A stretch of DNA of 64,000 bases from a virus. Made by a program: the position numbers and the translations under genes. The DNA lies in IMG/VR virus record IMGVR_UViG_3300003886_000002. One strand, 5' to 3'. The notes under the pieces are model-generated. The model had not been told where the DNA came from. It saw only the letters and a list, made by a program, of their open reading frames with translations, and ran no database searches. Positions 6,018-22,673 of this stretch are shown piece after piece (within the stretch, counting starts at the first letter, position 1; the number at the start of each line of letters is the position of its first letter).

Positions 6018-6090
6018 TACCTCGCAGTGGACTCGAACCACTATCTCCAAATTAAGAGTTTGGCCGTCTAACCAGTTGACATAGCGAGGC
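6018..6090 (-). tRNA. tRNA-Lys(CTT)
   Basis: Cloverleaf, CCAAA-CTCTTAA-TTTGG, GTTCGAGTC; no CCA. Confidence 0.9.
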
Positions 6091-6091
6091 A

Positions 6092-6169
6092 TGGTGAGGG
6101 CGACAGGAATCGAACCTGCGTTTGAACCGGGTAAAAGCCGGATGCAAGACCAACGTTTGCTACACCCTC
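6092..6169 (-). tRNA. tRNA-Lys(TTT)
   Basis: CCGG-CTTTTAC-CCGG, GTTCGATTC, CCA. Confidence 0.85.
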
Positions 6170-6189
6170 AGGGGGCGCGCCTGGGGTAA

Positions 6190-6306
6190 TCAGCGATGTT
6201 TCTTGAAGCCAGAGCGCCCCACGCCAGGTTTCGCTCCGCCAGCATCGTCCGACGCCTTCCGGCACGCCATGAGCTTTCGTTTGGCATTCGCTTCGCTGTT
6301 TCTCAT
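6190..6306 (-). CDS. 38-aa Lys-rich ORF upstream of the tRNA-Lys pair (candidate internal leader)
   Basis: AAGGAGGT RBS; MRNSEANAKRKLMACRKASDDAGGAKPGVGRSGFKKHR. Confidence 0.6.
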   Translation of the reverse strand: MRNSEANAKRKLMACRKASDDAGGAKPGVGRSGFKKHR

Positions 6307-6385
6307 GACGCACCTCCTTGGCGTGTCGGTTGCGAAAATATAGTTTGCTTTAAGTGCCCTAATGGGAACTTTACTTTCTATTGTG

Positions 6386-6459
6386 CTGTAGAGGAGAGAC
6401 TCGAACTCTCAACATCGGCCTTAACAGGACCGCTCCCCTGCCAATAGGGACCCTCTACA
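6386..6459 (-). tRNA. tRNA-Asn(GTT)
   Basis: CGGTC-CTGTTAA-GGCCG, GTTCGAGTC. Confidence 0.85.
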
Positions 6460-6570
6460 CCGTCACAGCGGACCATCAAGAGCAGCAAGTAAAACTTCTC
6501 GATCATTCAACCTTGATGCCATTGTGCAATTGTACCACGATTGACCCGTCGACTGCGGTCCAATTTCCTA

Positions 6571-6646
6571 TGGCTGAGGGGGCGAGAATCGAACTCACGT
6601 GCCCCTGATTCAAAGTCAGGACGGGATGCCAGCAACCCTCCCCTCA
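6571..6646 (-). tRNA. tRNA-Gln(TTG)
   Basis: CCTGA-CTTTGAA-TCAGG, CCA. Confidence 0.9.
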
Positions 6647-6691
6647 ATGCACTCTTCCTTATTCCGGAAGATATCTTCCAGAATAAGGAAC

Positions 6692-7207
6692 CTATGTGAC
6701 TTGATACTGTAAATAAGGAGCCCAAGATTCTTTAGGACTGAACCCGAATACAACCATCAGATCCCCCTTGGGGACAAACGGTTTGACACGAAGAGTCCAT
6801 CTCTCCGCCCCGAAACGCGTTTGAAGCTCTGAAAGCGTCATATCGTCCTTATCTGTGTTGCAACGACGGCATGCCGCTACAACATTCTCCCAACGATGCA
6901 AACCCCCACGAGACCGTGGAACAATATGGTCCACAGTATGTGCCCTCCCGCCACAGTACCCACACTTGTGACTATCCCTACCCAAAACGTTGCGTGTGTT
7001 AAGAGGAATACGTGAACGGTAGGGAACCTTAACGAAACGGTTCAACCTGATTACATCTGGCATAGGGACAGACACAGAAGGGGAACGCACCTCCCCGTTC
7101 CCGCGCTCAACTATCTCTGCCATGTCTTGCAACACAAGGACAACCGCGCGCCTCCACGTAATAACCCTTAACGGCTCCCATGTAGCATTCAGCAACAAAG
7201 TAGACAT
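6692..7207 (-). CDS. HNH endonuclease (McrA-like), inside the tRNA operon
   Basis: LLLNATWEPL, RDSHKCGYCG, TVDHIVPRSRGG, WENVVAACRRCN. Confidence 0.9.
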   Translation of the reverse strand: MSTLLLNATWEPLRVITWRRAVVLVLQDMAEIVERGNGEVRSPSVSVPMPDVIRLNRFVKVPYRSRIPLNTRNVLGRDSHKCGYCGGRAHTVDHIVPRSRGGLHRWENVVAACRRCNTDKDDMTLSELQTRFGAERWTLRVKPFVPKGDLMVVFGFSPKESWAPYLQYQVT

Positions 7208-7271
7208 TCCACACCTCCCTATACTTTCGTCCAACTACAGAAACCTGAGCTTCCCATCTTCCCTATCCTCC

Positions 7272-7343
7272 GGGTGGCTGAAGGGACTCGAACCCTCGCT
7301 AGCAGGGACACAACCTGCTGTGCTGCCACTACACTACAGCCAC
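7272..7343 (-). tRNA. tRNA-His(GTG)
   Basis: GCAGG-TTGTGTC-CCTGC, GTTCGAGTC. Confidence 0.85.
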
Positions 7344-7366
7344 ATCCTATAGCGAATCTCTTCGCT

Positions 7367-7445
7367 TGGCTGGGAAGGTAGGAATCGAACCTACGCATCT
7401 CCTGATCCAGAATCAGGCGGGTTTGCCAACGTCCCCCACTCCCCA
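7367..7445 (-). tRNA. tRNA-Gln(CTG)
   Basis: CCTGA-TTCTGGA-TCAGG, CCA. Confidence 0.9.
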
Positions 7446-7557
7446 TCACGACAGATAAAAGAACGAATCGTCAATACACTTTCCCGTAGACACCCCACAC
7501 CCCGGTTACTAAACTGCTGGGGATAGATGCCCACGAAACAATCTATTCTATTATCAG

Positions 7558-7631
7558 TCGGGTGTGTGAGAATCGAACTCACCTGATGTCCGCGCCCCAA
7601 ACGCGGCGTCCCTCCTTGAGACCGACACCCG
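7558..7631 (-). tRNA. tRNA-Pro(TGG)
   Basis: CCGCG-TTTGGGG-CGCGG; CGG/CCGA acceptor. Confidence 0.85.
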
Positions 7632-7716
7632 CTATGTGCAAACCATTACCACCTATCCATCATCTACCATTATAGGCACATCTACCACAGATCAACCACA
7701 CCTATTCTATTGCCTG

Positions 7717-7796
7717 TGCCCGTGGGGGGAGTCGAACCCCCATGCCGAAGCGCTCGTCCTTGAAGCGAGTGTGTATACCAGTTCCACCACACGGGC
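7717..7796 (-). tRNA. tRNA-Leu(CAA)
   Basis: CTCGC-TTCAAGG-ACGAG, long variable arm. Confidence 0.85.
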
Positions 7797-7890
7797 ATGT
7801 GAGCATACGGTTACAAACATCCTTCCTGCTGGTCTGCCTATGTGACATGTACAGAGCCCTAGATTTTCACAAAAGTTTTCATGCATGCTG

Positions 7891-7976
7891 TGCCCCCTGT
7901 GGGATTCGAACCCACACCGGGAATTCTCCCACGCGGGTCTAAACCGCGCCTCTCGACCAAATTGGAGTAAAGGGGC
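7891..7976 (-). tRNA. tRNA-Leu(TAG)
   Basis: CGCGG-TTTAGAC-CCGCG, long variable arm. Confidence 0.85.
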
Positions 7977-8007
7977 TTTGAACATCCTTTCCTACTATCT
8001 ATTTACG

Positions 8008-8081
8008 TGCTCCCCCCGGGACTCGAACCCGGAATACCTCAGGCTTAAACCGAGTGCCTTTACCAATTAGGCCAGGGGAGC
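8008..8081 (-). tRNA. tRNA-Leu(TAA), short variable loop
   Basis: CTCGG-TTTAAGC-CTGAG; variable region about 5 nt. Confidence 0.8.
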
Positions 8082-8152
8082 AGACATGCTGCACGCCACT
8101 GCAAAAGAGAAGTGCCTAGGGTTGGGCCTAAACCCACATGGCTACAAGCAGA

Positions 8153-8263
8153 CTAGATGTGCAGCGGTAACTGCTCGGCATCGAACGGTCGAGGCTTGTC
8201 ACGCCCCAAGCGTTGCCGATTCTTATGGGCATGTGCCCCTGTGAGTCGCAGCCGCTTCATCAT
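8153..8263 (-). CDS. leader peptide of tRNA operon A (Leu/Pro/Gln/His/Asn/Lys)
   Basis: MMKRLRLTGAHAHKNRQRLGRDKPRPFDAEQLPLHI; ATG 9 nt after TATGAT. Confidence 0.7.
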   Translation of the reverse strand: MMKRLRLTGAHAHKNRQRLGRDKPRPFDAEQLPLHI

Positions 8264-8272
8264 GGTGACCCT

Positions 8273-8300
8273 ATCATATCAGGTGGGCATGACACGTCAA
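8273..8300 (-). promoter_or_regulatory. promoter of tRNA operon A
   Basis: TTGACG-N16-TATGAT with TGTCATGCCCA motif in the spacer. Confidence 0.75.
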
Positions 8301-8304
8301 GTGG

Positions 8305-9048
8305 TTATCTGCCCCCACCTGGGATATGGAACCTGCTACCCATGACATCTACAGCCCGGGGGTTCGAATCCACTAGGAGGGAGTGCCGTCCAAGACGCAT
8401 AGCGGCATCCCCTGTCGTTCCGCTTCCAGCCATCGGATCGAGGACCAGATCACCAGGGTCGGTGAATGCTGTTATGAGACGGTTCAGCAACGCTACAGGC
8501 TTCTGAGTGGAATAGCCTGTCCTCTCAGAAGCAGAGGTAGACAGAAACGGGATCTGCCACCAATCATTCATTATCCGACCATCCGGGTGAAACCCTTTAC
8601 GGTCACCGTAATCGTGAGGATACGGTTCTCTAAGGGTATTGAACCTGTACAGATCCGATTTCGAATACACCAGCAGGTCATCATGCTTTCGACTGAAATG
8701 CCGTTTAGACGCACCCCCGGAGGCGTAACACCAAACAATGCTGTTGACAAACCTGTTCTCTCCGAACACGTCATCCAACTCTATGCGTATCCTGTGGGAC
8801 GCATGCCAATCACAGTGCACGACGATACAGGCCCTATCATCCATAACTCTTTGGCAAGCAGACAAAACACTGTTAATCCATATGCAATAATCTTGCAAAG
8901 TTCCCCGCCGATCGTCGAAATCAACGAGCCGTTTACCAGACCTAAAGGGCGGGTCGACGTAAACAAACTGCACCTGACCATCCCCAACATGGCTCAAAGC
9001 GTCGATACAGTCTCCGCACACCATGGAAGGCATAAACTCATTAGACAT
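8305..9048 (-). CDS. DNA adenine/N4-cytosine methyltransferase (beta class)
   Basis: YVDPPF, YSTQKPVALL, VLDPMAGSGTT. Confidence 0.9.
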   Translation of the reverse strand: MSNEFMPSMVCGDCIDALSHVGDGQVQFVYVDPPFRSGKRLVDFDDRRGTLQDYCIWINSVLSACQRVMDDRACIVVHCDWHASHRIRIELDDVFGENRFVNSIVWCYASGGASKRHFSRKHDDLLVYSKSDLYRFNTLREPYPHDYGDRKGFHPDGRIMNDWWQIPFLSTSASERTGYSTQKPVALLNRLITAFTDPGDLVLDPMAGSGTTGDAAMRLGRHSLLVDSNPRAVDVMGSRFHIPGGGR

Positions 9049-9073
9049 CAACGCTGCACCCAAACCTTCGCAC

Positions 9074-10255
9074 TCAAGTCCCCTTGTAGTTGAGGACGGC
9101 CTCTAGGGTATGGACAACATCAACCAGGTCAGATTGGGCGTCCATAACAGTCGCAATGTCCTTGTACGCCCCAGGGTGCTCATCTACCAGTTTGGCAGCC
9201 CGCCCGCGGTCCCACGAACGACCCCCCATGGCGGCAGTCAAACTATCTGCATCAAACATCTTTTTCGCTTGCCTGCGCGACATTTTCCGGCCCGCCCCAT
9301 GGCTACATGAGTGATAGGCAGCATCATTGCCTAAACCACGGACAACATATGTAGATGTGCCCATCGACCCTGGGATGACCCCAAGATCCCCCGACCGTGC
9401 ACGGATAGCCCCTTTACGCGTTAACCAGACAGACTTTCCGTGATGCTGTTCCCGGACCGTATAGTTGTGGTGGCAATTGATTCGGCTCTCCTGCAAACCC
9501 ACGCTGACCCCAAGTTCTTCTGCAATGCACCCCAGCACTGCGTCCATCATCTCTTCACGACTCAACAGGGCATAATCCTGTGCCCACAGCATGTCAGATA
9601 TGTAAGCATCGAACTCTAAAGAGCCCTCCACAAGGTATGCAAGATCAGGGTTAGGGATGCTGATGAACCACTCCTGCATCAGATGCTTAGCACGATCAAT
9701 ATGGAAACGAGCCAACTGATTCCCAATTCCGCGGCTACCCGAATGCAAAACTACCCAAACTCCGCCACCCTCGTCTATGCAAACCTCTACGAAATGGTTG
9801 CCTGAGCCGAGTGACCCGAACTGATCGAATACCTTACATGTCTGCCTGTCGTCGAACTCTGTGAACGAATTCGTCTCAGTCCAAAACTTGTGGAACCGTG
9901 TCGACGGCGCTTTCCCGTCATGACCCTTCCCAACCCCCGCGGGGATACTCTGCTCAATCCTTGAGTGAAGCCCCCCAAGGTCATCGGGAAGTTCATCGCC
10001 GCTAATGTTTAGCTTTGCTGCACACATTCCACATCCGATGTCCACCCCGATAGCCGCTGGGATGATTGCCCCACGGGTAGGGATAACTGACCCGATAGTG
10101 GACCCAAGCCCAAAGTGTGCGTCAGGCATCAAAGCTATGTGCCCCTGTACGAACGGCATCAGGGCTGTCTGTGCAGCTTGGGCACATGTGTTATGGTCGA
10201 TGCCCTCAACCCCCCAGGCGAGGACACCTTCTGCTGCCTTCGTTGGTTTTGACAT
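9074..10255 (-). CDS. rtcB: RtcB RNA ligase
   Basis: MPDAHFG, GVDIGCGM, GSGNHF, HSGSRG, HHNY, SCSHGAGR, DEHPGAYK. Confidence 0.97.
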   Translation of the reverse strand: MSKPTKAAEGVLAWGVEGIDHNTCAQAAQTALMPFVQGHIALMPDAHFGLGSTIGSVIPTRGAIIPAAIGVDIGCGMCAAKLNISGDELPDDLGGLHSRIEQSIPAGVGKGHDGKAPSTRFHKFWTETNSFTEFDDRQTCKVFDQFGSLGSGNHFVEVCIDEGGGVWVVLHSGSRGIGNQLARFHIDRAKHLMQEWFISIPNPDLAYLVEGSLEFDAYISDMLWAQDYALLSREEMMDAVLGCIAEELGVSVGLQESRINCHHNYTVREQHHGKSVWLTRKGAIRARSGDLGVIPGSMGTSTYVVRGLGNDAAYHSCSHGAGRKMSRRQAKKMFDADSLTAAMGGRSWDRGRAAKLVDEHPGAYKDIATVMDAQSDLVDVVHTLEAVLNYKGT

Positions 10256-10293
10256 GGCAGCAACCTACCACGTAGACATGACGCTACAGTCCA

Positions 10294-11061
10294 TCAGGAC
10301 CTTAGTCGTGCAATCTCTTCATCTAGCGCATCAGTATCCAAAATCTTCCAAGCCAAAGACCCCGTTTTCGAGTGATTCAAACCAAGGATAGATGTGTCCC
10401 CTCGCTTGCCAACTAGCCGATGGTGATAGTGGGCATGGACTGCAAGCCTAGGGTTAAGTTCATCTACTACCCCATCCAAGGCGTGACGATTAGCCATCGA
10501 CTGATGCTCTAGATTGTACGACAGATTGAACTGTCGCAATATTGCAGACAGATCACTGTAATTAGGGGAATCGTGCGTCAGCAGGACATCGACACCGCCG
10601 CCCCCGTTGCGTAAAGCACGCTCTACGTCCCCATAAGTGATTGTCTCCTGAGGCCACCACGAGATGAATGGGATACGGTGGCTGACGTCAACAGAGAACG
10701 CCCCCCCTAGAGACATGAAGCGCACCCCACCCCACTCCCACACTAAGCCGCGTGGGAGATAAGTAATGTGGCTATGCAACTGCACCATAGAAGGAGCATC
10801 CACCTTCGCCCCCAAGAATTCCATTACCTCAAAATTCTCATGGTTCCCATCCAACCAGTAAAGAGGCATATCTGCCTCAGAAAACCACCTGTTAAGGTTC
10901 CCCAAAGTCCTGTTGACATCTTCCTGGTTACACGACCATATAAACCCGAAGTCCCCCAGTTGCACCACTGCGTCAGCACGGACCCTCTTCGCGTAACGAA
11001 TTACCTTTGATTGCATCCACGCGAAGTCGCCGTGTGTGTCCCCAAGTAGCAACAATCTCAT
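10294..11061 (-). CDS. calcineurin-like metallophosphoesterase
   Basis: GDTHG, QLGDFG, DGNHEN, LTHDSP, HAHYH. Confidence 0.9.
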   Translation of the reverse strand: MRLLLLGDTHGDFAWMQSKVIRYAKRVRADAVVQLGDFGFIWSCNQEDVNRTLGNLNRWFSEADMPLYWLDGNHENFEVMEFLGAKVDAPSMVQLHSHITYLPRGLVWEWGGVRFMSLGGAFSVDVSHRIPFISWWPQETITYGDVERALRNGGGGVDVLLTHDSPNYSDLSAILRQFNLSYNLEHQSMANRHALDGVVDELNPRLAVHAHYHHRLVGKRGDTSILGLNHSKTGSLAWKILDTDALDEEIARLRS

Positions 11062-11093
11062 GGCAGACACATTATCATACAGGGTGGACAAGA

Positions 11094-11657
11094 CTAAATG
11101 TGTTGGAACAGCAGACCTGTATAGGCGCCAGTGCTTACCACTAGTGGCTGTCCAGGCAGCAGTGCCTGCTCTGCGATTGCAGCCACATCATCCACATCCA
11201 AACCCACTTGGAAAGTGTTGCGCTTCGCTGACGAAATCCACCCGTCGCCATAGCATTCCCACCGTCCACGTAACGCAGCAGATGCAACGTCCCCCCTGGT
11301 GCGCACAGCCACAAATACGTCACCCCCAAGATACGCAGACTCTCTCAAAACCCCCACCCTCTCTATGGGTGACGCGATCACATTGAGAACATAGACACAG
11401 GCAACAAGATCGAACCGCTGTATAGAACACTGTCCGTACCCATAAGACCCGTATGGATCGAAGCCCTCTGACTCAAACCCATTATCCCTATAGAACTCTA
11501 CATCTGTGCCGCGCCCGCATCCGTAATCCAGAACAGATCCCCAATGCTGCCCGCCACACAACCCCAGCAGATCGCGCGCAGGACGCGACGGCGTTCGCCT
11601 AGCAATAGCAGTTAAATGTGATGCTGCCCCAGGGAAACTACGCTCACCGGATCTCAT
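11094..11657 (-). CDS. class I SAM-dependent methyltransferase
   Basis: VLDYGCGRG, FDLVACVYVLNVI. Confidence 0.8.
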   Translation of the reverse strand: MRSGERSFPGAASHLTAIARRTPSRPARDLLGLCGGQHWGSVLDYGCGRGTDVEFYRDNGFESEGFDPYGSYGYGQCSIQRFDLVACVYVLNVIASPIERVGVLRESAYLGGDVFVAVRTRGDVASAALRGRWECYGDGWISSAKRNTFQVGLDVDDVAAIAEQALLPGQPLVVSTGAYTGLLFQHI

Positions 11658-12457: not shown

Positions 12458-12531
12458 GGAGCCTCCGGGGAGAATCGAACTCACCGCTTCCATCGTACCA
12501 AGATGGCGTGCCACCACAACACTTCAGAGGC
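12458..12531 (-). tRNA. tRNA-Thr(GGT)
   Basis: CCATC-TTGGTAC-GATGG. Confidence 0.85.
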
Positions 12532-12532
12532 T

Positions 12533-12603
12533 TGGAGCCGTACCGGGGAGTCGGACCCCGCCTTGTCAGGTACAAACCGACAGTCCTGCCACCAGGGCAC
12601 GGC
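12533..12603 (-). tRNA. tRNA-Thr(TGT), atypical D arm
   Basis: TGTCGG-TTTGTAC-CTGACA, CCA; no 8/9 linker. Confidence 0.75.
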
Positions 12604-12604
12604 T

Positions 12605-12679
12605 TGGAGCACCCACTCCGACTTGAACGGAGTTCCGTCGCTTACGAGGCGACTGCATCACCATCAATGCTTTAGGTGC
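12605..12679 (-). tRNA. tRNA-Thr(CGT)
   Basis: GTCGC-CTCGTAA-GCGAC, CCA. Confidence 0.9.
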
Positions 12680-12691
12680 ATATCTCCTTCG

Positions 12692-12763
12692 TGCGCAGAG
12701 GAGGAATCGAACCCCAAAGGCGGTGGAATAAGCACCGCTGTGGCAACCAACCACACTCCACGC
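12692..12763 (-). tRNA. tRNA-Ile(TAT)
   Basis: GCGGTG-CTTATTC-CACCGC, GTTCGATTC. Confidence 0.7.
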
Positions 12764-12776
12764 ATATCATTGCCTG

Positions 12777-12847
12777 TAGCGCCGGAGGGAATCGGACCCT
12801 CATCGCCCGAATATGAGTCGAGCACTCTACCATTGAGCTACGGCGCA
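12777..12847 (-). tRNA. tRNA-Met/Ile2(CAT)
   Basis: CTCGA-CTCATAT-TCGGG; T1:T72 mismatch. Confidence 0.8.
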
Positions 12848-12890
12848 GCGCAGATACCGTACCTGCTGAGGTACAGGTCGATCATATCAG

Positions 12891-12963
12891 TTGCCAGCCA
12901 GAGACTCGAACTCTGCACGGCCGCGATATCAGCACGGCACCATCACCCGATGGTCCACTGGCA
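12891..12963 (-). tRNA. tRNA-Ile(GAT)
   Basis: CCGTG-CTGATAT-CGCGG. Confidence 0.85.
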
Positions 12964-12970
12964 CTGGTTG

Positions 12971-13045
12971 AGCACCGGGTGAGATTTGAACTCACGACTA
13001 TACGGATTTGCAGTCCGTTCCTTTGGGCCGCTCAGGCACCGGTGC
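12971..13045 (-). tRNA. tRNA-Cys(GCA)
   Basis: ACGGA-CTGCAAA-TCCGT, U73. Confidence 0.9.
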
Positions 13046-13058
13046 TTACTTCGTTACG

Positions 13059-13131
13059 TACCCGAAGAGGGATTCGAACCCCCGTCACCTCGGTGTAAAC
13101 GAGGAGCTAGGCCAGACTCAGCTATTCGGGC
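13059..13131 (-). tRNA. tRNA-Val(TAC)
   Basis: CCTCG-TTTACAC-CGAGG. Confidence 0.9.
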
Positions 13132-13138
13132 TCGTTAT

Positions 13139-13213
13139 TGGTGGCCCCCGTGGGATTCGAACCCACCTCTCTTGCTCTTCAAACAAACGCTAATCCACCT
13201 CAGCTAGAGGGCC
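13139..13213 (-). tRNA. tRNA-Phe(GAA)
   Basis: TTTGT-TTGAAGA-GCAAG, CCA. Confidence 0.85.
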
Positions 13214-13253
13214 ATGGGCATCAGCCTTTAGGCATCTGCGATCTACTCCCGTA

Positions 13254-13328
13254 TGGAGCGAGTGCGGAGAGTCGAACTCCGTTTTCCGACTTGGAAGGAC
13301 GGCGCATCACCACCAATGCTTCACTCGC
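13254..13328 (-). tRNA. tRNA-Gly(TCC)
   Basis: CCGTC-CTTCCAA-GTCGG, GCG/CGC-T-CCA. Confidence 0.9.
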
Positions 13329-13394
13329 TAGATCTCTTTTGTTGTCAAGTGAAAGGCCCCTGTGAGAACCAGGGCACATTCTGTGCTGTTTCCG

Positions 13395-13467
13395 TGGAGC
13401 ATCGGGGCTTTGATCCCCGCACCTCCTGTTTGCAAAACAGGTGCTCTTCCAAATGAGCTAATGCCCC
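13395..13467 (-). tRNA. tRNA-Ala(TGC)
   Basis: CCTGT-TTTGCAA-ACAGG, G3:U70. Confidence 0.9.
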
Positions 13468-13545
13468 ATGGGGTGGGGACGGTTGCATTCAGCAGAACGC
13501 CTACTAACCGTCCCCACCCACCCAGCCCATCGCCTCTGGCAAGGT

Positions 13546-13620
13546 TGGGGGCGGGAGGGAGAATCGAACTCCCGGAACCTGGCTTATGAGGCCAAGTGGG
13601 CTACCAGCAGCCTTCCCGCA
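13546..13620 (-). tRNA. tRNA-Met(CAT), possibly initiator-like
   Basis: TTGGC-CTCATAA-GCCAG; 1:72 mismatch; CCA. Confidence 0.8.
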
Positions 13621-13769: not shown

Positions 13770-13797
13770 ATCATAGCATAGATGCATGCCAGGTCAA
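13770..13797 (-). promoter_or_regulatory. promoter of tRNA operon B
   Basis: TTGACC-N16-TATGAT with extended TGn -10. Confidence 0.75.
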
Positions 13798-16115: not shown

Positions 16116-16170
16116 GTGGGACAGGTTACCTGATGGGGATGACACCACTGCCAATCTGATCCTATCTAAG

Positions 16171-16241
16171 TGCCCCGCCGGGGAGTCGAACCCGCGAACG
16201 GTAGAGGTAGAAACCCCACCTGAGCTTCCGGCTCGCGAGGC
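16171..16241 (-). tRNA. tRNA-Arg(TCT), atypical
   Basis: GGTGGGG-TTTCTAC-CTCTACC; no 8/9 linker. Confidence 0.75.
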
Positions 16242-16242
16242 G

Positions 16243-16314
16243 TGGCGCCCTTGGCGGGAGTCGAACCCGCTCGCCGCGTGTAGGAGACGCGTGTCTGGGT
16301 CCACCAGCAAGGGC
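16243..16314 (-). tRNA. tRNA-Arg(CCT), atypical
   Basis: CGCGT-CTCCTAC-ACGCG, CCA. Confidence 0.8.
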
Positions 16315-16318
16315 ATTG

Positions 16319-16392
16319 TCGGGCACCCGAGATTCGAACTCGGACTACCGGCCCCCCAGGCCGGGGTGCAACCAAACCGACACTCGTGCCCG
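16319..16392 (-). tRNA. tRNA-Pro(GGG)
   Basis: CCGGC-CTGGGGG-GCCGG. Confidence 0.85.
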
Positions 16393-16394
16393 CG

Positions 16395-16463
16395 CACCCA
16401 GGGTGAGACTCGAACTCACTAAACGTGGCTTCGGATGCCGCGTCCCATTCCTTTGGCCTGGGT
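16395..16463 (-). tRNA. tRNA-Arg(CCG), atypical
   Basis: ACGCGGC-ATCCGAA-GCCACGT. Confidence 0.75.
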
Positions 16464-16587
16464 AAATCGTCACCGTATCCCCTTTCAACCAAGTGTTTGC
16501 AGCAAACCCCTACAGTCTACCTGCACCCATATGTGTTGGCTTCCCCCACCACGGTAGAGACTAGTTTATCCTTGTGTGGCGAAGTTG

Positions 16588-16656
16588 CACCCCCGGCGCG
16601 AATCGAACGCGCTCGCCAGGATTCGTAGTCCTAGGTCCCTATCCATGGGCGGGGGT
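16588..16656 (-). tRNA. tRNA-Arg(ACG), atypical
   Basis: CTAGGA-CTACGAA-TCCTGG. Confidence 0.8.
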
Positions 16657-16743
16657 ATTGTTACCTACCCTGTCTTCTGTGTTCCGTGTTCTGGTATACC
16701 CGAACAGTGTAACCTATTCCATTCTTTAACATTCTTGTTTATG

Positions 16744-16821
16744 TGGCAGGGTCGTGAGGAGTCGAACCCCATCGTGTATCAGCAGGTTTGGAAGCTGCCC
16801 GGCAACCGTCGCCTCGACCCC
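16744..16821 (-). tRNA. tRNA-Trp(CCA)
   Basis: GCAGC-TTCCAAA-CCTGC, G73 CCA. Confidence 0.75.
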
Positions 16822-16837
16822 AGGTTGTAAATCTCAG

Positions 16838-16910
16838 TACCCCCAACGGGATTTGAACCCGTGTTACCTACGTGAAAGGCAGGCGTCCTGGGCCGCTAGA
16901 CGATGGGGGC
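16838..16910 (-). tRNA. tRNA-Glu(TTC)
   Basis: Canonical; CCTGC-CTTTCAC-GTAGG. Confidence 0.95.
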
Positions 16911-16927
16911 TTGTTCTGTGTGTTCCG

Positions 16928-17000
16928 CGGTCCTGCGGGGAGTCGAACCCCGATCTTCGCCTCGACAGGGCGTTATAATGAGCCGTTATACGACAGGACC
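16928..17000 (-). tRNA. tRNA-Asp(GTC)
   Basis: CGCC-CTGTCGA-GGCG. Confidence 0.9.
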
Positions 17001-17004
17001 TCAG

Positions 17005-17076
17005 TACCCCGTAGGAGAATCGAACTCCTGTTTCTGCCATGAGAAAGCAGTGTCCTAGCCACTAAACGAACGGGGC
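17005..17076 (-). tRNA. tRNA-Glu(CTC)
   Basis: CTGCT-TTCTCAT-GGCAG. Confidence 0.9.
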
Positions 17077-17111
17077 AGGTAGTGACAGCAAGGGCATCCC
17101 GCCCCCGTCAC

Positions 17112-17207
17112 TCAGATATCTCGTCTGCGCCTGGGCTCAGAATCAACGCGCGGCGAACGGGGCCATCGTGGCTCAACCTGTTCTACGGGTACCTCTCGCG
17201 TTTCCAT
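17112..17207 (-). CDS. leader peptide of tRNA operon C (Glu/Asp/Trp/Arg/Pro)
   Basis: METREVPVEQVEPRWPRSPRVDSEPRRRRDI; ATG 9 nt after TATAGT. Confidence 0.8.
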   Translation of the reverse strand: METREVPVEQVEPRWPRSPRVDSEPRRRRDI

Positions 17208-17216: not shown

Positions 17217-17244
17217 ACTATAACAGGTAGCCATGACATGTCAA
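17217..17244 (-). promoter_or_regulatory. promoter of tRNA operon C
   Basis: TTGACA-N16-TATAGT. Confidence 0.8.
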
Positions 17245-17250
17245 GGCAGC

Positions 17251-17292
17251 AATAAAACAACCTACGCCCCCTGCCGAAACAGGGGGCGTAGG
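17251..17292 (-). terminator. intrinsic terminator
   Basis: CCTACGCCCCCTG-TTTCGG-CAGGGGGCGTAGG followed by TTGTTTTATT. Confidence 0.85.
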
Positions 17293-17515
17293 AGAAGCGA
17301 GGACTTGGCTGCCTCGAACAGGGGGCATCGGGTTGCCAATGCATTTGCCCCTGTACCACTCAATTGTCTGCCGACATCAGATTCCACCATCCACCGATGG
17401 CAGCCCTCCGCACAGACGTGCCTCGGGACCTTCTGACTTAAGTGTGCTGTGCGGCCAGCCGATGCGTACCGCTATTGAGCCACTCCTTACTCTCAGGAAG
17501 CTATCCCTTGAGCAA
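17255..17515 (-). ncRNA. candidate structured ncRNA (about 260 nt)
   Basis: Own promoter (17521-17542) and terminator, no credible ORF, several nested helices. Confidence 0.5.
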
Positions 17516-17542
17516 CCGACACCCTACCACATGGGGGTGACA

Positions 17543-18088
17543 CTAACCGGATGGGAAATGTTCGCAACCAAATACTTCCGACAGCGGTACCATTGCAACT
17601 ATGTCATCGCGCCCTGCAACGGGACGTGTGACCAAACGAACGGCCCCGTGCTCCTCGCATTCAGGGGAATGAAACCAGACGTCGTTGTTTCCGCTAGGGC
17701 CAGATGGGTAATCGACTAGGCAGTGTGAGCATATGGTCCACTTGGGATAGTCCCCATGAACCCGCATGACAATCTTTGCCAAAGCAATGATAGCGTCCTC
17801 AAACGTATCCCCGCCACAGTCCAATTCCCAATCATGCGTCTGGCCCCCATCGTCCTCCAACGGCCCACACTCTACCCAAATGTTGGTCTTGGTGTTCAGG
17901 GAATCATCATCTTCGACACGATCATTAACAGGATTCACTTTTACCACAATGAGATCGTATGCGATGGTGAAACCCTCGCTTCCCTTCATCGGGCCGTCCC
18001 TATAGCGAAAGTATGGATGTCCATAGAGCCAATCCCATGCTTCATGGAAATCGTCAAGGTTCGGGGTGAGCAATGGAAGATCAGTCAT
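17543..18088 (-). CDS. hypothetical protein
   Basis: 181-aa ORF, ATGA coupling. Confidence 0.7.
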   Translation of the reverse strand: MTDLPLLTPNLDDFHEAWDWLYGHPYFRYRDGPMKGSEGFTIAYDLIVVKVNPVNDRVEDDDSLNTKTNIWVECGPLEDDGGQTHDWELDCGGDTFEDAIIALAKIVMRVHGDYPKWTICSHCLVDYPSGPSGNNDVWFHSPECEEHGAVRLVTRPVAGRDDIVAMVPLSEVFGCEHFPSG

Positions 18089-18474
18089 CGTCTAAACCTC
18101 GGCCACCATCTGCGATGGGAGTAGGCCAATATGAGGTGTGAGAATAGGTGCGCCACGCTTGGGGAAGGGATCGCAGCAAATGCTGTCGCCTCAAAGGACA
18201 AATCGGGTTCACGGAATACTTCACGTACATCAACCCAATGCTTGATCCTGTAGTAGAAGTCAAGTAGCGCTTGCTGGTCATCTACTTCTAGAACGATAAG
18301 GTAATTCCCGTTAGGGTCGTCATGCCAACTCTTTGATGCGTCAGGAGCCCGTAGGCACATCTCTGCGACTGCGTGGCCAACCTGGGCGGCACGAAGCCCC
18401 GGGGGGAGATCCCCGCGGACAACGACATACATTTTCGTTTTTCCTGCCATTGCAGGAAGATCATCCGGTCTCAC
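18085..18474 (-). CDS. peptidyl-tRNA hydrolase, Pth2-like
   Basis: KMYVVVRGDLPPGLRAAQVGHAV, YLIVLEV, FREPDL. Confidence 0.8.
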   Translation of the reverse strand: MRPDDLPAMAGKTKMYVVVRGDLPPGLRAAQVGHAVAEMCLRAPDASKSWHDDPNGNYLIVLEVDDQQALLDFYYRIKHWVDVREVFREPDLSFEATAFAAIPSPSVAHLFSHLILAYSHRRWWPRFRR

Positions 18475-19133
18475 CTATAGTCCTTCCGTTTTATCTTCAC
18501 AGTGATACGTTTCCCTCTACCGTCGTAGATGTCAACTGCTGGACGCCCTACGATCCCTTCGGGGTGTGCAACCCCTTGCCACTGCGACCCTATATGGCCA
18601 TTTACGACGAAACCTTCTGCTGTGCAAATGTCGGCGGTAGCAGCCCCATCGAATTGGACCGTAGGGACTACGTCAATGCCCAATTTGTTGGCAATATCAA
18701 CAACGTTTGCACGTGAAAGCCAATAACGCCCTACCCGCACATCGAACAGCACGAAGTCTACGCTGTCCGCAATGTAATCCCCGCCTCCTTTCTGGATGCC
18801 AGCCCCATATCCTTCACCATACAACGTCACGTAATAGTTGGTGTCTGGGAAGGATTCGCGCCATGGGATAGTCTCTTGCAAACCTATCAGGCGTGCCAAA
18901 AGAGCAGAAGGGATCTGGGCACGGTCAGTGCGACCCCCGATATCGTATAGGGAATCATCTGGGTCTGTGAGGTCCTTCCCAAGCCTAATGTTGGTTCCGT
19001 CGATCTTCTCGGTCCAAACCCATTGGTTGTAGCGAAGGTACTCGAATACGGGGAGGCTAAACTGACCGTCGATGATCTTGCCTTTCTCCCCCCGCTTGTA
19101 CAGGCCGTTGATCTTAGGGTAGGCAGCGAACAT
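18471..19133 (-). CDS. ATP-dependent RNA ligase (Rnl2-type)
   Basis: YPKI, TEKIDGTN, LYGEGYG, FVLFDV, EGIV, VKIK. Confidence 0.9.
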   Translation of the reverse strand: MFAAYPKINGLYKRGEKGKIIDGQFSLPVFEYLRYNQWVWTEKIDGTNIRLGKDLTDPDDSLYDIGGRTDRAQIPSALLARLIGLQETIPWRESFPDTNYYVTLYGEGYGAGIQKGGGDYIADSVDFVLFDVRVGRYWLSRANVVDIANKLGIDVVPTVQFDGAATADICTAEGFVVNGHIGSQWQGVAHPEGIVGRPAVDIYDGRGKRITVKIKRKDYR

Positions 19134-19167
19134 GGGGATCACCTTACTAGGTGGGCATGACCCTGGG

Positions 19168-19581
19168 TCACGCCAAGTATGTTTCATGCATCTTGCGGAT
19201 GACCGCCTCACCAACGTGTCCCACCTCGCGGGATGCGTCGCGGCGAATGCACTCATCTAGGGGGACGCTGCGAAAATCTCGTATAAGGAACCTGGCCCCA
19301 TAGATGACAGCGAAACCCTCCAGGGCTGCAATGCACGATGGGTGAAAATTCGTGTCATCGCAGACAACAGAAAATCCTCTCCCCAGGAAACAACCCAGGA
19401 TGACGTCGCGGGCAGCTATGATCGTGACCTCGTTTTCCTCAGACCAAACCCCCACATCGACCATGCAACGTAAATCATCCCTGTTGATCCTCTTCACGGC
19501 ACCCCCCGAGCGAGACACGATACCTTTGGCCCAGGTTGTCTTACCAGATGCAGGGAGCCCAATGGTTGCGATCAAATCCAT
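19168..19581 (-). CDS. polynucleotide kinase (kinase domain only)
   Basis: GLPASGKTT, INRDDLR, DDTN, ECIRRDASR. Confidence 0.9.
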   Translation of the reverse strand: MDLIATIGLPASGKTTWAKGIVSRSGGAVKRINRDDLRCMVDVGVWSEENEVTIIAARDVILGCFLGRGFSVVCDDTNFHPSCIAALEGFAVIYGARFLIRDFRSVPLDECIRRDASREVGHVGEAVIRKMHETYLA

Positions 19582-19656
19582 GCTCGCACAGTAGCAGGTA
19601 GGGGGGACAACGCTTAGAGAAAGTGGCACAACCCGCTGTCCCGGTCCCATCTGTAT

Positions 19657-20829
19657 GTGGAAACCCTACACTTTGCCCCCCAACTATGGCAGACTGGTCG
19701 TATGACTTTCGGAGAAACAGAAGCATATTTAAACGCTAACGGACTCACTCCCCAATCGGTTTTCCAAACCCTTTTGATGCAACGAGTGGTAAACGGCGAC
19801 TTCAACTACATCGCGACAAAAGTGTTTGACAGCCCGTCAACGTGGTCTAGCGTCATCGAAGTATTAGCAGCAACCCCCGGTATACAGATCAAACAGGTTG
19901 GGGAAGTCAAATCGACCCTAAACGTTGCAGCCTTTGAACGTAAGAACTCTACGGCAGTGCTTACACAAGACCATTGGGGGGAGTGGGAGCTGCTAGTCGC
20001 CGTCAACGACTCAGGTGAAGCAGACCGCTGGATCGGGGCAGTTAAATCTCTACTTCCCCCGCACCCCCCCATCCCTGTCCCAGATCTTCCAAACAACATT
20101 GTCCCAGTGATGTTCTGGATGCAAAACCCCTACACAGGGGGAGCGGACTATCGACGCAGGAACATTGAAGTCACTAAATGGGAAGAGATCGAAGCCAACT
20201 ATCCCTGCGACACACGACACCAAATATCCGAGGTCATGGGCTCCGTCCAACCGGATGGGGAAGGCAAACTGATACTCTTCCAGGGTCCGCCGGGGACAGG
20301 GAAGACAAGGTCGATCCTGTCGCTGATCAGTGAATGGCGTGACTGGTGTTTCTCGTCTGTCGTTACGGACGCTGACAGGCTGCTAGGTGACCCAACCTAT
20401 CTCAACGATCTGCTATTCAGCATGGAAGGCCGAGGGGATTATCTCCTACTGATCATAGAAGACGGTGACGAATTCGTCAATGTTGACGAACGCTCATCTA
20501 AAGGCCAGGCACTTAGCCGTATCCTCAACATCGCCGACGGCATTATGGGGCAGGGGCTCAACATGTTGACCCTCATATCTACGAATGTATCCGTAGACAA
20601 ACTGAACCCGGCAATGGCACGCCCTGGGCGCTGCATGGCGAACATCCACTTCCCAGGGTTCTCATCTGATGAGGCTGCACAGTGGATGGAAGGGAAGATT
20701 GCAGAAAGTGATCTTGTCCCCGATGCCATTGAGGCGCTTACGCAAAGCAAATATGGGGTTTCTACAGACGACGTATCTTCGCCAGAACACATGTTCACTC
20801 TGGCAGAGCTTTACGATGCGCTGCGTTAA
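19657..20829 (+). CDS. AAA+ ATPase
   Basis: GPPGTGKT, LLIIEDGD, LNIADG, ARPGRC. Confidence 0.85.
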   Translation: METLHFAPQLWQTGRMTFGETEAYLNANGLTPQSVFQTLLMQRVVNGDFNYIATKVFDSPSTWSSVIEVLAATPGIQIKQVGEVKSTLNVAAFERKNSTAVLTQDHWGEWELLVAVNDSGEADRWIGAVKSLLPPHPPIPVPDLPNNIVPVMFWMQNPYTGGADYRRRNIEVTKWEEIEANYPCDTRHQISEVMGSVQPDGEGKLILFQGPPGTGKTRSILSLISEWRDWCFSSVVTDADRLLGDPTYLNDLLFSMEGRGDYLLLIIEDGDEFVNVDERSSKGQALSRILNIADGIMGQGLNMLTLISTNVSVDKLNPAMARPGRCMANIHFPGFSSDEAAQWMEGKIAESDLVPDAIEALTQSKYGVSTDDVSSPEHMFTLAELYDALR

Positions 20830-20832
20830 CGA

Positions 20833-21069
20833 CTAGTCCTCGACAAATATGCATTCGCCTGGGCAAGACTCAGCCGCCTCTGATACATCATCCTCGCATT
20901 CTTGAGGGACGACAGCCGCCTGTTCGCTCCCCCCGGGGGTATCCAGGACAACCCCATTCTGAACTGCGTAGGCCAAGGGGTTACGGCCGCGCATAATGAA
21001 CACGTTAGGGCAAATCTCTTCGCAGAGCCCATCGCCTGTGCAATCTTCTTGTATGATCCATACCTTCAT
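20833..21069 (-). CDS. ferredoxin
   Basis: MKVWIIQEDCTGDGLCEEICP...AAESCPGECIFVE. Confidence 0.9.
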   Translation of the reverse strand: MKVWIIQEDCTGDGLCEEICPNVFIMRGRNPLAYAVQNGVVLDTPGGSEQAAVVPQECEDDVSEAAESCPGECIFVED

Positions 21070-21132
21070 AACGTACCCCCGTGGCGCTACTCCCACCATA
21101 CGCGCAAGAGCCACCCCGTAGGGTGACCCTTT

Positions 21133-21548
21133 TGGTGGAGCCGGGGGGTATCGAACCCCCGTCCAATGAGAGATTACGCTGTCCGATGTACAACCATCCT
21201 TCGTCTTTCCGAAGCGTCAGTGCAATGGGGTTTCCCCTGTCGCAACTAGCGGGTCTTTCCCCGCAGTCGTGAACAGTATGCCTGTCCCGGCATTCAGTCT
21301 TTCCTGAATGTCAACTCGTCTGTCCGTGTTGTCAGACTGATTGGATAGCAAGGTTCAGTCAGACCCCGTCCTGCTCGTCTATCAAACGAGGACGCTTTCG
21401 CAAGCATCAAACTCTGCCCAAAGGGCGTCAGATTCAGGAGCCTCGGTGTTGTCCTCGGCGTGTATTTTGGTGCCCCGTTTCACGAGTCTGAGCAACTCGG
21501 GTTGCGTTCGGCGCTCACAGGCTCATTGTCGAATCCTGTTTCAGCCCC
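21133..21548 (-). ncRNA. ssrA: tmRNA
   Basis: 5' GGGGCTGAAACAGGATTCGAC; 3' GTTCGATACCCCCCGGCTCCACCA; tag ORF 21459-21382. Confidence 0.95.
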
Positions 21549-21585
21549 TAGTTGTTGCTACACACCCTACCACATGGGGGTGACA

Positions 21586-21867
21586 TCAGTTGTACCCCAT
21601 GCGACCCTTCATCGCATTCATTGCAACATCCGAATTAGCGATAATCGTTTCAATCGCATCTGGGTTGTCTACATTGTGTAGGTTTACCCCAGACATGCGG
21701 GCCAATACCCCATAGGCTGCTGCTACCGCTAGGAAGGCCCCACGTAACTCGTCGAGATCCATCGCTATAAGCACACTATGTGCTGCACCCATGTCGCCTC
21801 GTTCTACGGGGCCTAAGAACTTGCAGATATTGGTGAGGTTGCGGCGGATTATCTGAGAATCTTCCAT
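21586..21867 (-). CDS. hypothetical protein
   Basis: 93-aa ORF behind promoter motif. Confidence 0.6.
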   Translation of the reverse strand: MEDSQIIRRNLTNICKFLGPVERGDMGAAHSVLIAMDLDELRGAFLAVAAAYGVLARMSGVNLHNVDNPDAIETIIANSDVAMNAMKGRMGYN

Positions 21868-21921
21868 ACGGCATCATACCCCATTCTATGGTCACCCGGG
21901 ATGCTGCATCTTTCTACTTTG

Positions 21922-22004
21922 CGGAGAGCGGAGGACACGATCCCCAAGCCTTACGACTCCGGCCACTTTCCAGGTGGCGTCAACACCTTGTCGATTCACT
22001 CTCC
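21922..22004 (-). tRNA. tRNA-Ser(GGA)
   Basis: GCCAC-CTGGAAA-GTGGC, long variable arm. Confidence 0.85.
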
Positions 22005-22086
22005 ATGTTGAGAGAATCATGTATCTAAATCCTCTCAAGGAATATAAGACTCATGACCCTTAACGCAGGGACATGTATCTCATTTG

Positions 22087-22169
22087 CGGAAGGAGAGGGA
22101 TTCGAACCCCCAACTCCTGACGAAGCCACAGTTTTCAAAACTGCTTGGCACCCCAATGCCGGTCCTTCC
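22087..22169 (-). tRNA. tRNA-Ser(TGA)
   Basis: GCAGT-TTTGAAA-ACTGT. Confidence 0.9.
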
Positions 22170-22188
22170 TTGTCTAATCTATCCTGAG

Positions 22189-22271
22189 CGGAGAGTGGAG
22201 GAGTTGCACCCCATGCCTCGCGACACGTATCGCTTTCGAAACGACCCCAGCGCTTTGCCGGTTCGCCCTCC
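22189..22271 (-). tRNA. tRNA-Ser(CGA)
   Basis: GTCGT-TTCGAAA-GCGAT. Confidence 0.85.
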
Positions 22272-22324
22272 AATATGTAACCGAACGTCTACATTCGTTC
22301 CCTGTAAAGGTTCGGTTACATAAG

Positions 22325-22411
22325 CGGAACGTCGAGGACTTGCACCCCAACCCCATGTGGGATCGAACGCCTTAGCAGGGCGCCCCGGCACGCTTGTCCG
22401 GTTGGCATTCC
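22325..22411 (-). tRNA. tRNA-Ser(GCT)
   Basis: GCGCC-CTGCTAA-GGCGT. Confidence 0.85.
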
Positions 22412-22475
22412 ATCGCTTACATCTAAACCGGATTCGCTGCCGAGAACACACAGATTCCGGTATGGATCTAAGTCG

Positions 22476-22554
22476 TGAGAGGGGTGAGAATCGAACTCAC
22501 CATGCCTAAGCACCTGGGTTACAGCCAGGTTGTCCACCTTGGAGCGTCCCTCCC
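22476..22554 (-). tRNA. tRNA-Tyr(GTA)
   Basis: CCTGG-CTGTAAC-CCAGG, long variable arm. Confidence 0.85.
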
Positions 22555-22576
22555 GAGAGAGGACACGCGCGTGCCC

Positions 22577-22633
22577 TCAGTCGCTAGATGAGCGACTCGA
22601 ATACGATGCGGACGAATACAGAAGACGATTCAT
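22577..22633 (-). CDS. leader peptide of tRNA operon D (Tyr/Ser)
   Basis: MNRLLYSSASYSSRSSSD; ATG 9 nt after TATGAT. Confidence 0.85.
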   Translation of the reverse strand: MNRLLYSSASYSSRSSSD

Positions 22634-22673
22634 GACTATCTCATCATAACACACGGGGGGGACATCGATAGAC

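Follow-up and report, generated by a model that had tools for sequence, protein, structure and literature searches.

In leader-peptide attenuators such as trpL, hisL, thrL and ilvL, a short reading frame separates the promoter from the first regulated gene, the frame is enriched in codons whose decoding reports the very supply that the operon restores, and RNA pairing is found at the end of the frame. Some of these leaders are multivalent, i.e., several amino acids are sensed by one leader, Thr and Ile in the case of thrL and Ile, Leu and Val in the case of ilvL. Leader peptides that are read out via Rho or via polymerase pausing are also known (tnaC of the tna operon, pyrBI, and mgtL/mgtP of Salmonella); there, the position of the ribosome at or near the stop codon decides on transcription, and no classic terminator/antiterminator pair adjoins the leader. 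T-box riboswitches, too, are cis-acting 5′ leaders that report the status of transfer RNA (tRNA), but they bind uncharged tRNA directly and require no translation. Control of tRNA genes themselves is, to our knowledge, known mainly at the promoter, in the form of growth-rate and stringent control. Here, we analyze four short reading frames, each located between a promoter and a block of tRNA genes, in a 64,000-nt stretch of DNA of an uncultured phage (IMG/VR record IMGVR_UViG_3300003886_000002; this whole stretch is referred to below as the window). The amino acid composition of each frame matches the tRNAs encoded directly downstream of it, and the frames may serve as leaders through which a translating ribosome gauges tRNA supply.

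The targets of these phage leaders are tRNA genes and not, as in the attenuators named above, genes for biosynthesis enzymes or aminoacyl-tRNA synthetases, so that the sensed molecule and the product would be of one kind. The phage also differs from attenuators in having four parallel leaders that divide the amino acids among themselves and in that three of the four leaders have leaderless-type starts. The principle of leader-peptide attenuation is restated in the accessible parts of PMC1183508 and of bioRxiv 10.1101/834739, the latter of which deals with mycobacterial poly-Cys short open reading frames. As described in the accessible part of that source, these resemble what is proposed for the phage leaders in three respects: the first cistron is a short frame of the actinobacterial, leaderless type (phage leaders A, C and D have a start that may be leaderless, less surely so in the window), cognate codons accumulate toward the 3′ end of the frame (as in phage leader D, see below), and the position of the ribosome alters pairing beside the stop codon, with no intrinsic terminator involved. 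According to the same part, they differ in that what is freed is the Shine-Dalgarno sequence of a downstream protein gene, whereas no translation follows the phage leaders, and in that one amino acid is sensed, versus two to eight per phage leader; in addition, analogous pairing between a phage leader and the first tRNA did not rise above shuffled controls. An earlier note on this DNA, made from the sequence alone, had invoked the poly-Cys frames as a precedent; judging from the accessible part of bioRxiv 10.1101/834739, they are indeed attenuators but act on translation through Shine-Dalgarno pairing and not through a terminator.

Arrays of tRNA genes in phages and plasmids have been viewed as codon-supply or counter-defense sets in the accessible parts of PMC5966550, PMC12803027 and PMC13096335. 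Like those arrays, the one studied here is a large accessory set on an actinobacterial-type mobile element, beside RNA-repair genes; in contrast to the present analysis, the parts of the three papers that are accessible cover gene content and role rather than regulation, and the words “leader”, “promoter” and “terminator” are absent from the main text of the mycobacterial tRNA-array paper PMC5966550 as far as it is accessible. The earlier note was aware of no description of leader peptides upstream of phage tRNA genes, and our full-text literature searches, with most subscription journals outside their scope, also returned none for tRNA genes of any kind. Nor did the literature searched contain a case of a ribosome reporting decoding capacity back to tRNA genes.

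All tRNA genes of the array are on the minus strand and are grouped in four blocks (operons A to D), and the first gene behind every leader is a tRNA gene. The earlier note had proposed that a short open reading frame (ORF) is located between each promoter and the first tRNA gene; all four ORFs are indeed present, on the minus strand, and the numbers of cognate residues that it had reported are exact. Leader ORF A (8263..8153) consists of 36 codons and a stop codon, with 17/36 residues being Leu, Pro, Gln, His, Asn or Lys. In leader B, a GGAGG sequence at 13745-13741 precedes the ATG at 13731, and the frame of 30 codons and a stop codon ends at 13639; Met, Ala, Gly, Phe, Val, Cys, Ile and Thr make up 23/30 of its residues. 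Leader ORF C (17207..17112) has 31 codons and a stop codon, 21/31 of them specifying Glu, Asp, Trp, Arg or Pro, with a single Trp. The shortest frame, leader ORF D (22633..22577), has 18 codons and a stop codon; 10/18 are Tyr or Ser codons, and all six Ser codons are present. When every leader is scored against each of the four amino acid sets, the resulting four-by-four table is diagonal: the counts for sets A, B, C and D are 17, 10, 12 and 0 in leader A; 2, 23, 5 and 0 in leader B; 6, 7, 21 and 2 in leader C; and 3, 2, 3 and 10 in leader D. As had been noted earlier, each of the four leaders contains every amino acid of its own operon, and among the leaders of the window Trp is confined to C, Cys to B, Tyr to D, and both His and Lys to A.

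The match was compared with chance expectation in two ways. The first null was the composition of the window's own 557 ATG-initiated short ORFs (sORFs) of 15-60 amino acids, a pool that includes leaders A, B and D. Binomial p values against this composition were 1.1e-2 for A, 2.0e-4 for B, 6.8e-7 for C and 8.0e-6 for D; the numbers of equally extreme sORFs among the 557, with leaders A, B and D themselves within the pool, were 11, 2, 0 and 2, respectively. The second test is free of ORF choice. Here, the minimum p over all ATG, GTG or TTG ORFs of at least 15 codons, nested ones included, was recorded for the 200 nt upstream of each first tRNA gene, and the null consisted of 2552 segments of 200 nt taken from both strands of the entire window, the leaders' own segments being counted. 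Segments as extreme as the regions of A, B, C and D numbered 62, 4, 2 and 4 of the 2552, respectively, and the four own-set enrichments combined give a Fisher p of 1.2e-7, while no region fell below p = 1.6e-2 with a mismatched set. The earlier note had named an enrichment no greater than in random sORFs as an observation that would speak against its reading; the combined p value shows that the enrichment exceeds that level.

Uncultured relatives were found through an RlaP-type nucleotidyltransferase (47-56% identical), and the comparison set comprises eight genomes, the window and seven relatives. The IMG/VR contigs G1, G2, L011 and L012 have the same four tRNA blocks as the window, with the same order and amino acid grouping; two metagenome contigs, L020 and L022, and one more IMG/VR contig, G003, which came from a motif scan, carry parts of the array. 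The earlier note had pointed to related phages as the place to look for the same coupling, and a matched leader was found at 25/25 positions in the eight genomes, the frame being open at every one of them (20 positions in the window, G1, G2, L011 and L012, three in L020 and L022, and two in G003). Counts out of 20 given below refer to the four leaders of the first five of these genomes. Counterparts of leader A are present in all five relatives that hold that position; the weakest match of all is leader A of L022, with 13/32 cognate residues. In the ORF-choice-free test, the own set is the best-scoring of the four sets in 20/20 regions, and every amino acid of the set is present in 20/20 leaders. 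Each C leader of the five genomes has a single Trp and each B leader a single Cys, and these residues are absent from the other leaders (5/5 genomes in both cases); His is restricted to A leaders in the same five genomes.

The relatives were sought in several collections. A metagenome scan yielded 48 loci, 43 of which were run through ARAGORN; two of the loci are the contigs of G2 and L012, and the only syntenic ones among those examined are L020 and L022. Scanning viral contigs with a 14-base motif (42 of 64 parts) gave at least 120 loci, and a tRNA-Tyr context was found in four, three of them known contigs and the fourth G003. A scan with a 15-base motif retrieved 36 loci, including two known relatives and no new one, and a scan of genome contigs gave five loci, with tRNAs in none of the three checked. 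Outside the clade, two Streptomyces phages, BRock and LuckySocke (30 and 31 tRNAs), have 36 gaps upstream of tRNA genes in which no convincing leader was seen; two gaps were flagged, both because of ORFs of no more than 12 codons. The 24 tRNA clusters of loci L003, L028, L062 and L063 contained no sORF with p < 0.067 in the same pipeline. Since these 60 clusters of six other phages gave no convincing matched leader, we conclude that matched leaders are specific to this clade among the loci examined and are not general to phage tRNA arrays.

Signals that could direct transcription and translation of the frames are present. Promoter A (8273..8300, minus strand) has its -35 element at 8300-8295 and its -10 element at 8278-8273, separated by a 16-nt spacer, with TG before the -10 element and 10/12 consensus positions. 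Promoter B (13770..13797, minus strand; -35 at 13797-13792, -10 at 13775-13770) also has TG before the -10 element and scores 10/12, and promoter C (17217..17244, minus strand; -35 at 17244-17239, -10 at 17222-17217, again with TG) scores 11/12, the best match in 5500-24500. Promoters C, B and A are three of the four best sigma-70-type matches in these 19 kb. In operon D, the -10 box (22643..22648, minus strand) is preceded by TG, which makes it an extended -10 element, and the promoter scan gave no -35 match. A fourth strong promoter-like site (10/12) was observed at 20452-20480 on the minus strand, inside an AAA ATPase ORF of the plus strand (19657-20829), with no tRNA or leader downstream of it.

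In leaders A, C and D of the window, the ATG is located 9 nt after the -10 element, here a TGnTAnnnT box, as the earlier note had stated. Across the A, C and D leaders of the five genomes, such an extended -10 element ends 6-9 nt before the start codon in 14/15 cases; the distance is 6-7 nt in 11/12 of these leaders in the relatives and 9 nt in all three of the window. Such distances are compatible with leaderless mRNAs in the relatives and, in the window, with an mRNA that is nearly leaderless. Longer ORFs are listed for C and D, but they begin within or upstream of the promoter, and the inner ATG is therefore the first on the predicted transcript. Leader B has a GGAGG sequence 9 nt upstream of its ATG, and a GGAGG 5-9 nt before an ATG or GTG is present in 7/7 B leaders (those of the five genomes, L020 and L022).

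How the leaders have changed between genomes is consistent with their being decoded. The leader peptides of three lineages, represented by the window, G1 and G2, are only 26-54% identical, and at differing positions a residue of the set is replaced by another residue of the same set in 55/90 cases, an upper estimate, versus 28.6 expected. Among closer relatives, gap runs inside leader frames are multiples of three in 14/14 cases, and substitutions at codon positions 1, 2 and 3 number 58, 86 and 113. In-frame indels and substitutions that preserve composition together point to selection that acts on decoding and not on the peptide sequence.

Of the 515 leader codons, 305 can be decoded, with standard wobble allowed, by tRNAs from their own operon, compared with 166 of 1545 for tRNAs of another operon. 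For the relatives, the fractions of tRNAs whose own leader offers a cognate codon are 35/37, 39/40, 30/32 and 39/42, the exceptions being Val isoacceptors and a single doubtful Trp call; these fractions exclude genes whose anticodon could not be read, and the locus of L011 ends within block A. The earlier statement that synonymous codons are spread over the isoacceptors holds as a description, with a wobble-cognate codon present for 33/33 tRNAs of the window, but the spread does not go beyond chance (P = 0.13).

The number of tRNA genes given earlier, 36, was not reproduced. ARAGORN with default settings finds 29, and at the relaxed threshold 34 tRNA-like genes, one of them without a readable anticodon; Rfam adds none in the gaps of operon A. 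The genes gained at the relaxed threshold are Trp and Arg(acg) in block C, two Ser genes in block D and the anticodon-less gene in block B. Operon A (6017..8081, minus strand) encodes 10 tRNAs: three for Leu, then Pro, Gln, His, Gln, Asn and two for Lys. Operon B (12458..13620, minus strand) encodes 11, namely Met, Ala, Gly, Phe, Val, Cys, Met, Ile and three for Thr, in addition to the tRNA-like gene at 12890-12963. Operon C (16170..17076, minus strand) contains genes for Glu, Asp, Glu, Trp, Arg(acg), Pro(ggg), Arg(cct) and Arg(tct), of which Trp and Arg(acg) appear at the relaxed threshold only; a weak Rfam match lies at 16747-16822 in this operon. Operon D (21921..22554, minus strand) contains Tyr, Ser(gct), Ser(tga) and Ser(gga), two of these Ser genes being found at the relaxed threshold only. 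There are thus 8 to 12 tRNA genes per block and four in operon D.

Several observations concern the interior of the blocks. The tRNA-like gene at 12890-12963 (minus strand), detected by ARAGORN at the relaxed threshold only, has a two-base “anticodon”; relatives have a tRNA-Ile(gat) near the corresponding place, and leader B of the window has two ATC codons. Inside operon A, an ORF for an HNH endonuclease (7234..6692, minus strand; Pfam E 1e-12) separates tRNA-His from tRNA-Gln(ttg). In G1, G2 and L012 the counterparts of these two tRNA genes are close together and the HNH ORF is absent, and the ORF looks like a homing-endonuclease insertion.

Elsewhere in operon A, a 38-codon ORF (6190-6306, minus strand) with an AGGAGG-type site 6 nt before its ATG encodes six Lys and two Asn residues and is located in the 215-nt gap that directly precedes the pair of tRNA-Lys genes; possibly, it acts as a second-tier leader within the operon. 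A 50-codon ORF with a leaderless-type start was seen in L012 upstream of Asn and Lys tRNAs. Apart from these two, no convincing second-tier leader was found in the internal gaps of the operons. In L009 (ca. 8575-8610), with counterparts in L011 and L012, there is a conserved frame of 10-11 codons with five Arg codons, including AGA and AGG, ca. 300 nt upstream of the genes for tRNA-Arg(cct) and tRNA-Arg(tct). The frame is antisense to an apparent gene for a small membrane protein, and its conservation is probably due to that opposite-strand gene.

The RNA downstream of the leaders was examined for structures through which translation could be read out. Pairing that overlaps or abuts the stop codon, reported earlier, was found in all four operons of the window, but it exceeds dinucleotide shuffles in D and C only, not in B and A. 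In operon C, a hairpin (17081..17112, minus strand) extends from the last base of the leader stop codon to 4 nt before tRNA-Glu, with a folding energy of the tail of -19.7 kcal/mol; compared with 200 dinucleotide shuffles its z is -2.05, 6/200 shuffles being as good. In operon D, an 8-pair, G+C-rich hairpin (22559..22578, minus strand) extends from the second base of the stop codon to 4 nt before tRNA-Tyr (z = -2.5; 2/200 as good). A small hairpin at 13655-13640 (minus strand) overlaps the stop codon of leader B. The spacer of operon A (8082..8152, minus strand), 71 nt from the leader stop codon to tRNA-Leu, has a long-range stem in which the last codons pair with bases just before the tRNA, and it also has a weak terminator-like hairpin followed by a T-rich run (8133-8114, minus strand).

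In 5/5 genomes, operons C and D have a stable hairpin at the stop codon that ends 0-6 nt before the tRNA, with differing sequences. Single-sequence folds and reading of the sequences show paired changes that preserve the stem among G1, L011 and G003; RNAalifold applied to a MAFFT alignment of six D tails, in which the hairpins are out of register, predicted three pairs and no covariation. When folding was repeated with the footprint of a ribosome masked, the C and D hairpins were abolished only by a ribosome on the last four codons or on the stop codon. Leader D has four consecutive Ser codons as its last four codons in 4/5 genomes. Masks in the middle of the leader abolished the hairpin only in operon B of G1, L011 and L012, and operons A and B of the window gave no clear picture. 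The leaders showed no Rfam match to a T-box or to any other known cis-regulatory RNA family; for the T-box, this holds at the Rfam gathering score or at E up to 1 over 5800-23000 and at E up to 10 over 6000-8300. A switch in which the 5′ strand of the first tRNA is sequestered by leader RNA was considered and rejected, as such pairing is not above that in codon-order shuffles.

The reading that a leader-peptide type of control operates here is based on the four-way match between what each frame demands of the ribosome and what the genes downstream supply, and a ribosome-based sensor is the only reading we found that explains this match. With moderate confidence, we regard the promoter-proximal frames as a ribosome-based gauge of tRNA supply, in which slow decoding likely raises the output of the tRNA block; our confidence that some translation-coupled control exists in general is higher. 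One can envision the following sequence of events. The leader frames would be translated, as their sequence signals suggest. A shortage of any tRNA of the set, whether by low supply or by cleavage, would slow the ribosome on the leader, and as long as the ribosome stayed on the final four to five codons, the hairpin at the stop codon would be kept from forming. With the hairpin open, RNA polymerase would proceed into the tRNA genes; fast decoding and release of the ribosome would let the hairpin form, and output would be cut. Such a loop would keep each subset of tRNAs at the level that translation requires. The sign of the response is inferred from this logic.

The step controlled by the hairpin might be termination that needs no U tract, Rho-associated pausing or some other process. 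The known leaders that work through Rho or pausing (tnaC, pyrBI and mgtL/mgtP) differ from the phage leaders in that they sense a free amino acid, nucleotides or Mg/proline and control protein genes; furthermore, the phage spacers are only 13-38 nt long in 17/20 cases, so that a Rho loading site could hardly be accommodated outside the leader. The sensor put forward in the earlier note is supported in part: the coupling is non-random and conserved throughout the clade, and signals for translation are present, whereas the switch that the note envisaged is a prediction.

The response might also have the opposite sign: the hairpin would pause polymerase at the start of the first tRNA, and a ribosome completing the leader would melt it and so license transcription. 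Pause release in trp and coupling in pyrBI are precedents for a licensing, positively coupled device. The hairpin begins at the stop codon, so that an arriving ribosome must open it, the lack of a U tract fits a pause hairpin better than a terminator, and a leader this short would presumably need a pause for the ribosome to catch up with polymerase. We nevertheless hold this version to be unlikely. It would lower the supply of precisely those tRNAs that are scarce, which is poor logic; the multi-amino-acid, “any shortage” design corresponds to that of multivalent attenuators such as thrL and ilvL, which are switched on by shortage; and the cognate codons of leader D are packed at its end, where a stall would by itself keep the hairpin open. 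Distinctly unlikely, in our view, is a sensor that works post-transcriptionally, with the position of the ribosome setting the folding of the precursor, its cutting by RNase P or its degradation, for instance through pairing of leader RNA with the first tRNA or through a block to nucleases. The distance from the hairpins to the mature 5′ end of the first tRNA is 0-9 nt, no terminator-like U tract is present, and the mycobacterial Cys sORF works without transcription termination, according to the accessible part of bioRxiv 10.1101/834739. Moreover, attaching the entire leader leads to loss of the first tRNA's acceptor stem in 11/20 predicted folds. Codon-order shuffles, however, disrupt the stem as often or more often (mean intact fraction 0.30, versus 9/20 for native sequences), so the predicted pairing between leader and tRNA is not specific. 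Starting from the stop codon, the tRNA folds normally in 18/20 cases, and a device of this kind would reach the first tRNA only, yet each leader lists all amino acids of its block.

Two further explanations do without a sensor altogether. The leaders might give rise to small peptides that have their own function, or be translated to no consequence, in which case chance or local base composition would account for the likeness to the tRNA sets. In favor of this, G1, L011, L012 and G003 have very similar peptides, and all leaders are rich in Arg, which is non-cognate in A, B and D. A coincidence is very hard to reconcile with the four-way diagonal match, significant at the combined p value given above in the window alone, with the own set being best in 20/20 regions, with a composition that is kept while the sequence drifts to 26-54% identity, with the restriction of one Trp and one Cys to the matching leader in 5/5 genomes, and with the negative controls in six other phages; we give this explanation hardly any weight. 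Just as improbable is the possibility that the frames are incidental to untranslated promoter-proximal RNA or DNA elements, such as an initial transcribed sequence, processing signals or 5′ stabilizers. In line with such elements, hairpins and motifs flanking the promoters are conserved, and the ATG of the window leaders, 9 nt from the -10 element, is not ideally placed for a leaderless start. An untranslated element offers no reason for amino acid composition to track tRNA identity, for a correctly spaced GGAGG in all seven B leaders, for the 14/14 in-frame gap runs or for a frame open at 25/25 positions.

Several results weigh against the tRNA-supply gauge. Approximately 40% of leader codons are non-cognate to the operon, with Arg being common in A, B and D. 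The substitution test above was made on a BLOSUM alignment, which favors similar residues and makes its result an upper estimate, and the excess of third-position substitutions is modest. When synonymous codons were resampled from genome codon usage, coverage of the tRNAs was nearly equal (P 0.05-0.26 per genome), and the signal therefore lies in the choice of amino acids and not in the choice of synonymous codons. The stop-codon structures of B (z = -0.53) and A (z = -0.23) are no more stable than shuffled sequences. In contrast to attenuators, the phage leaders lack a hairpin-plus-U-tract terminator: a T-rich stretch (at least five T in 8 nt) is present in 1/20 spacers, that of operon A of the window, while T runs in the other 19 reach a length of 2 at most. 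Elsewhere, the phage has a canonical terminator, a 14-pair stem followed by a T tract (17261..17292, minus strand), which closes the upstream gene directly before promoter C and exemplifies the standard terminator of this phage. A conserved antiterminator was not found either, and a 1:2, 2:3, 3:4 layout of pairing is seen only in operon B of one sub-lineage (G1, L011 and L012). With the 9-nt distance in the window, transcripts may begin with two or three extra bases, which makes a leaderless start less sure. Finally, the eight genomes form one clade, and the match may have a single origin; it would then amount to four independent observations, at the level of operons, that were subsequently maintained.

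The genes around the tRNA blocks suggest in what setting a gauge of tRNA supply might be used. RNA-repair and translation-rescue genes are interleaved with the tRNA operons at 9074-19650 (genes on the minus strand) and 21133-21548. The island contains RtcB ligase, a metallophosphoesterase, a methyltransferase, ClpP, an RlaP-family nucleotidyltransferase, PTH2 peptidyl-tRNA hydrolase, an RNA ligase, an AAA_33 kinase and transfer-messenger RNA (tmRNA), and the gene of the RlaP-type nucleotidyltransferase sits directly upstream of promoter B. The link between the leaders and cleavage of host tRNAs is circumstantial and rests on these interleaved repair genes. That the four leaders serve as parallel ribosome “test tracks”, each switching on the matching block when host tRNAs are scarce or have been cut by a defense nuclease, is accordingly a tentative proposal, in which we place less than even trust.

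The stretch at 6018-22664 has a G+C content of 53%, and a megablast search against 50,697 phage records gave no near match to it. Genes of the window point to a phage of Actinobacteria, since they include a WhiB gene, phages of Streptomyces, Gordonia, Mycobacterium and Arthrobacter give the best protein matches to the nucleotidyltransferase, and the nearest match in genome collections is a contig of an Actinomycetes metagenome bin. Directly after operon C there are two adjacent minus-strand ORFs without a Pfam match (14647-15594 and 15495-16130); their translations have a common Gly/Tyr/Cys-rich stretch, which suggests that they are paralogues. A strong anomaly of composition was observed at 42001-46000, where the AT skew is -0.27 to -0.40 and the GC skew is +0.22 to +0.24, unlike in the remaining window.

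If the leaders do act as a gauge, leader-peptide attenuation can be turned on tRNAs themselves, and this would be the first leader-peptide control of tRNA genes. It would account for how a phage can dose its accessory tRNAs, 30 or more in number, group by group, and it would provide a direct read-out of the contest between the phage and a host defense that cleaves tRNAs. The hairpin without a U tract may point to a poorly understood form of termination or pausing in high-G+C hosts. The amino acid “address” of each leader would be simple enough for recoding tests, for which conservation throughout the clade supplies natural variants, and might serve as a design for synthetic feedback on tRNA supply.

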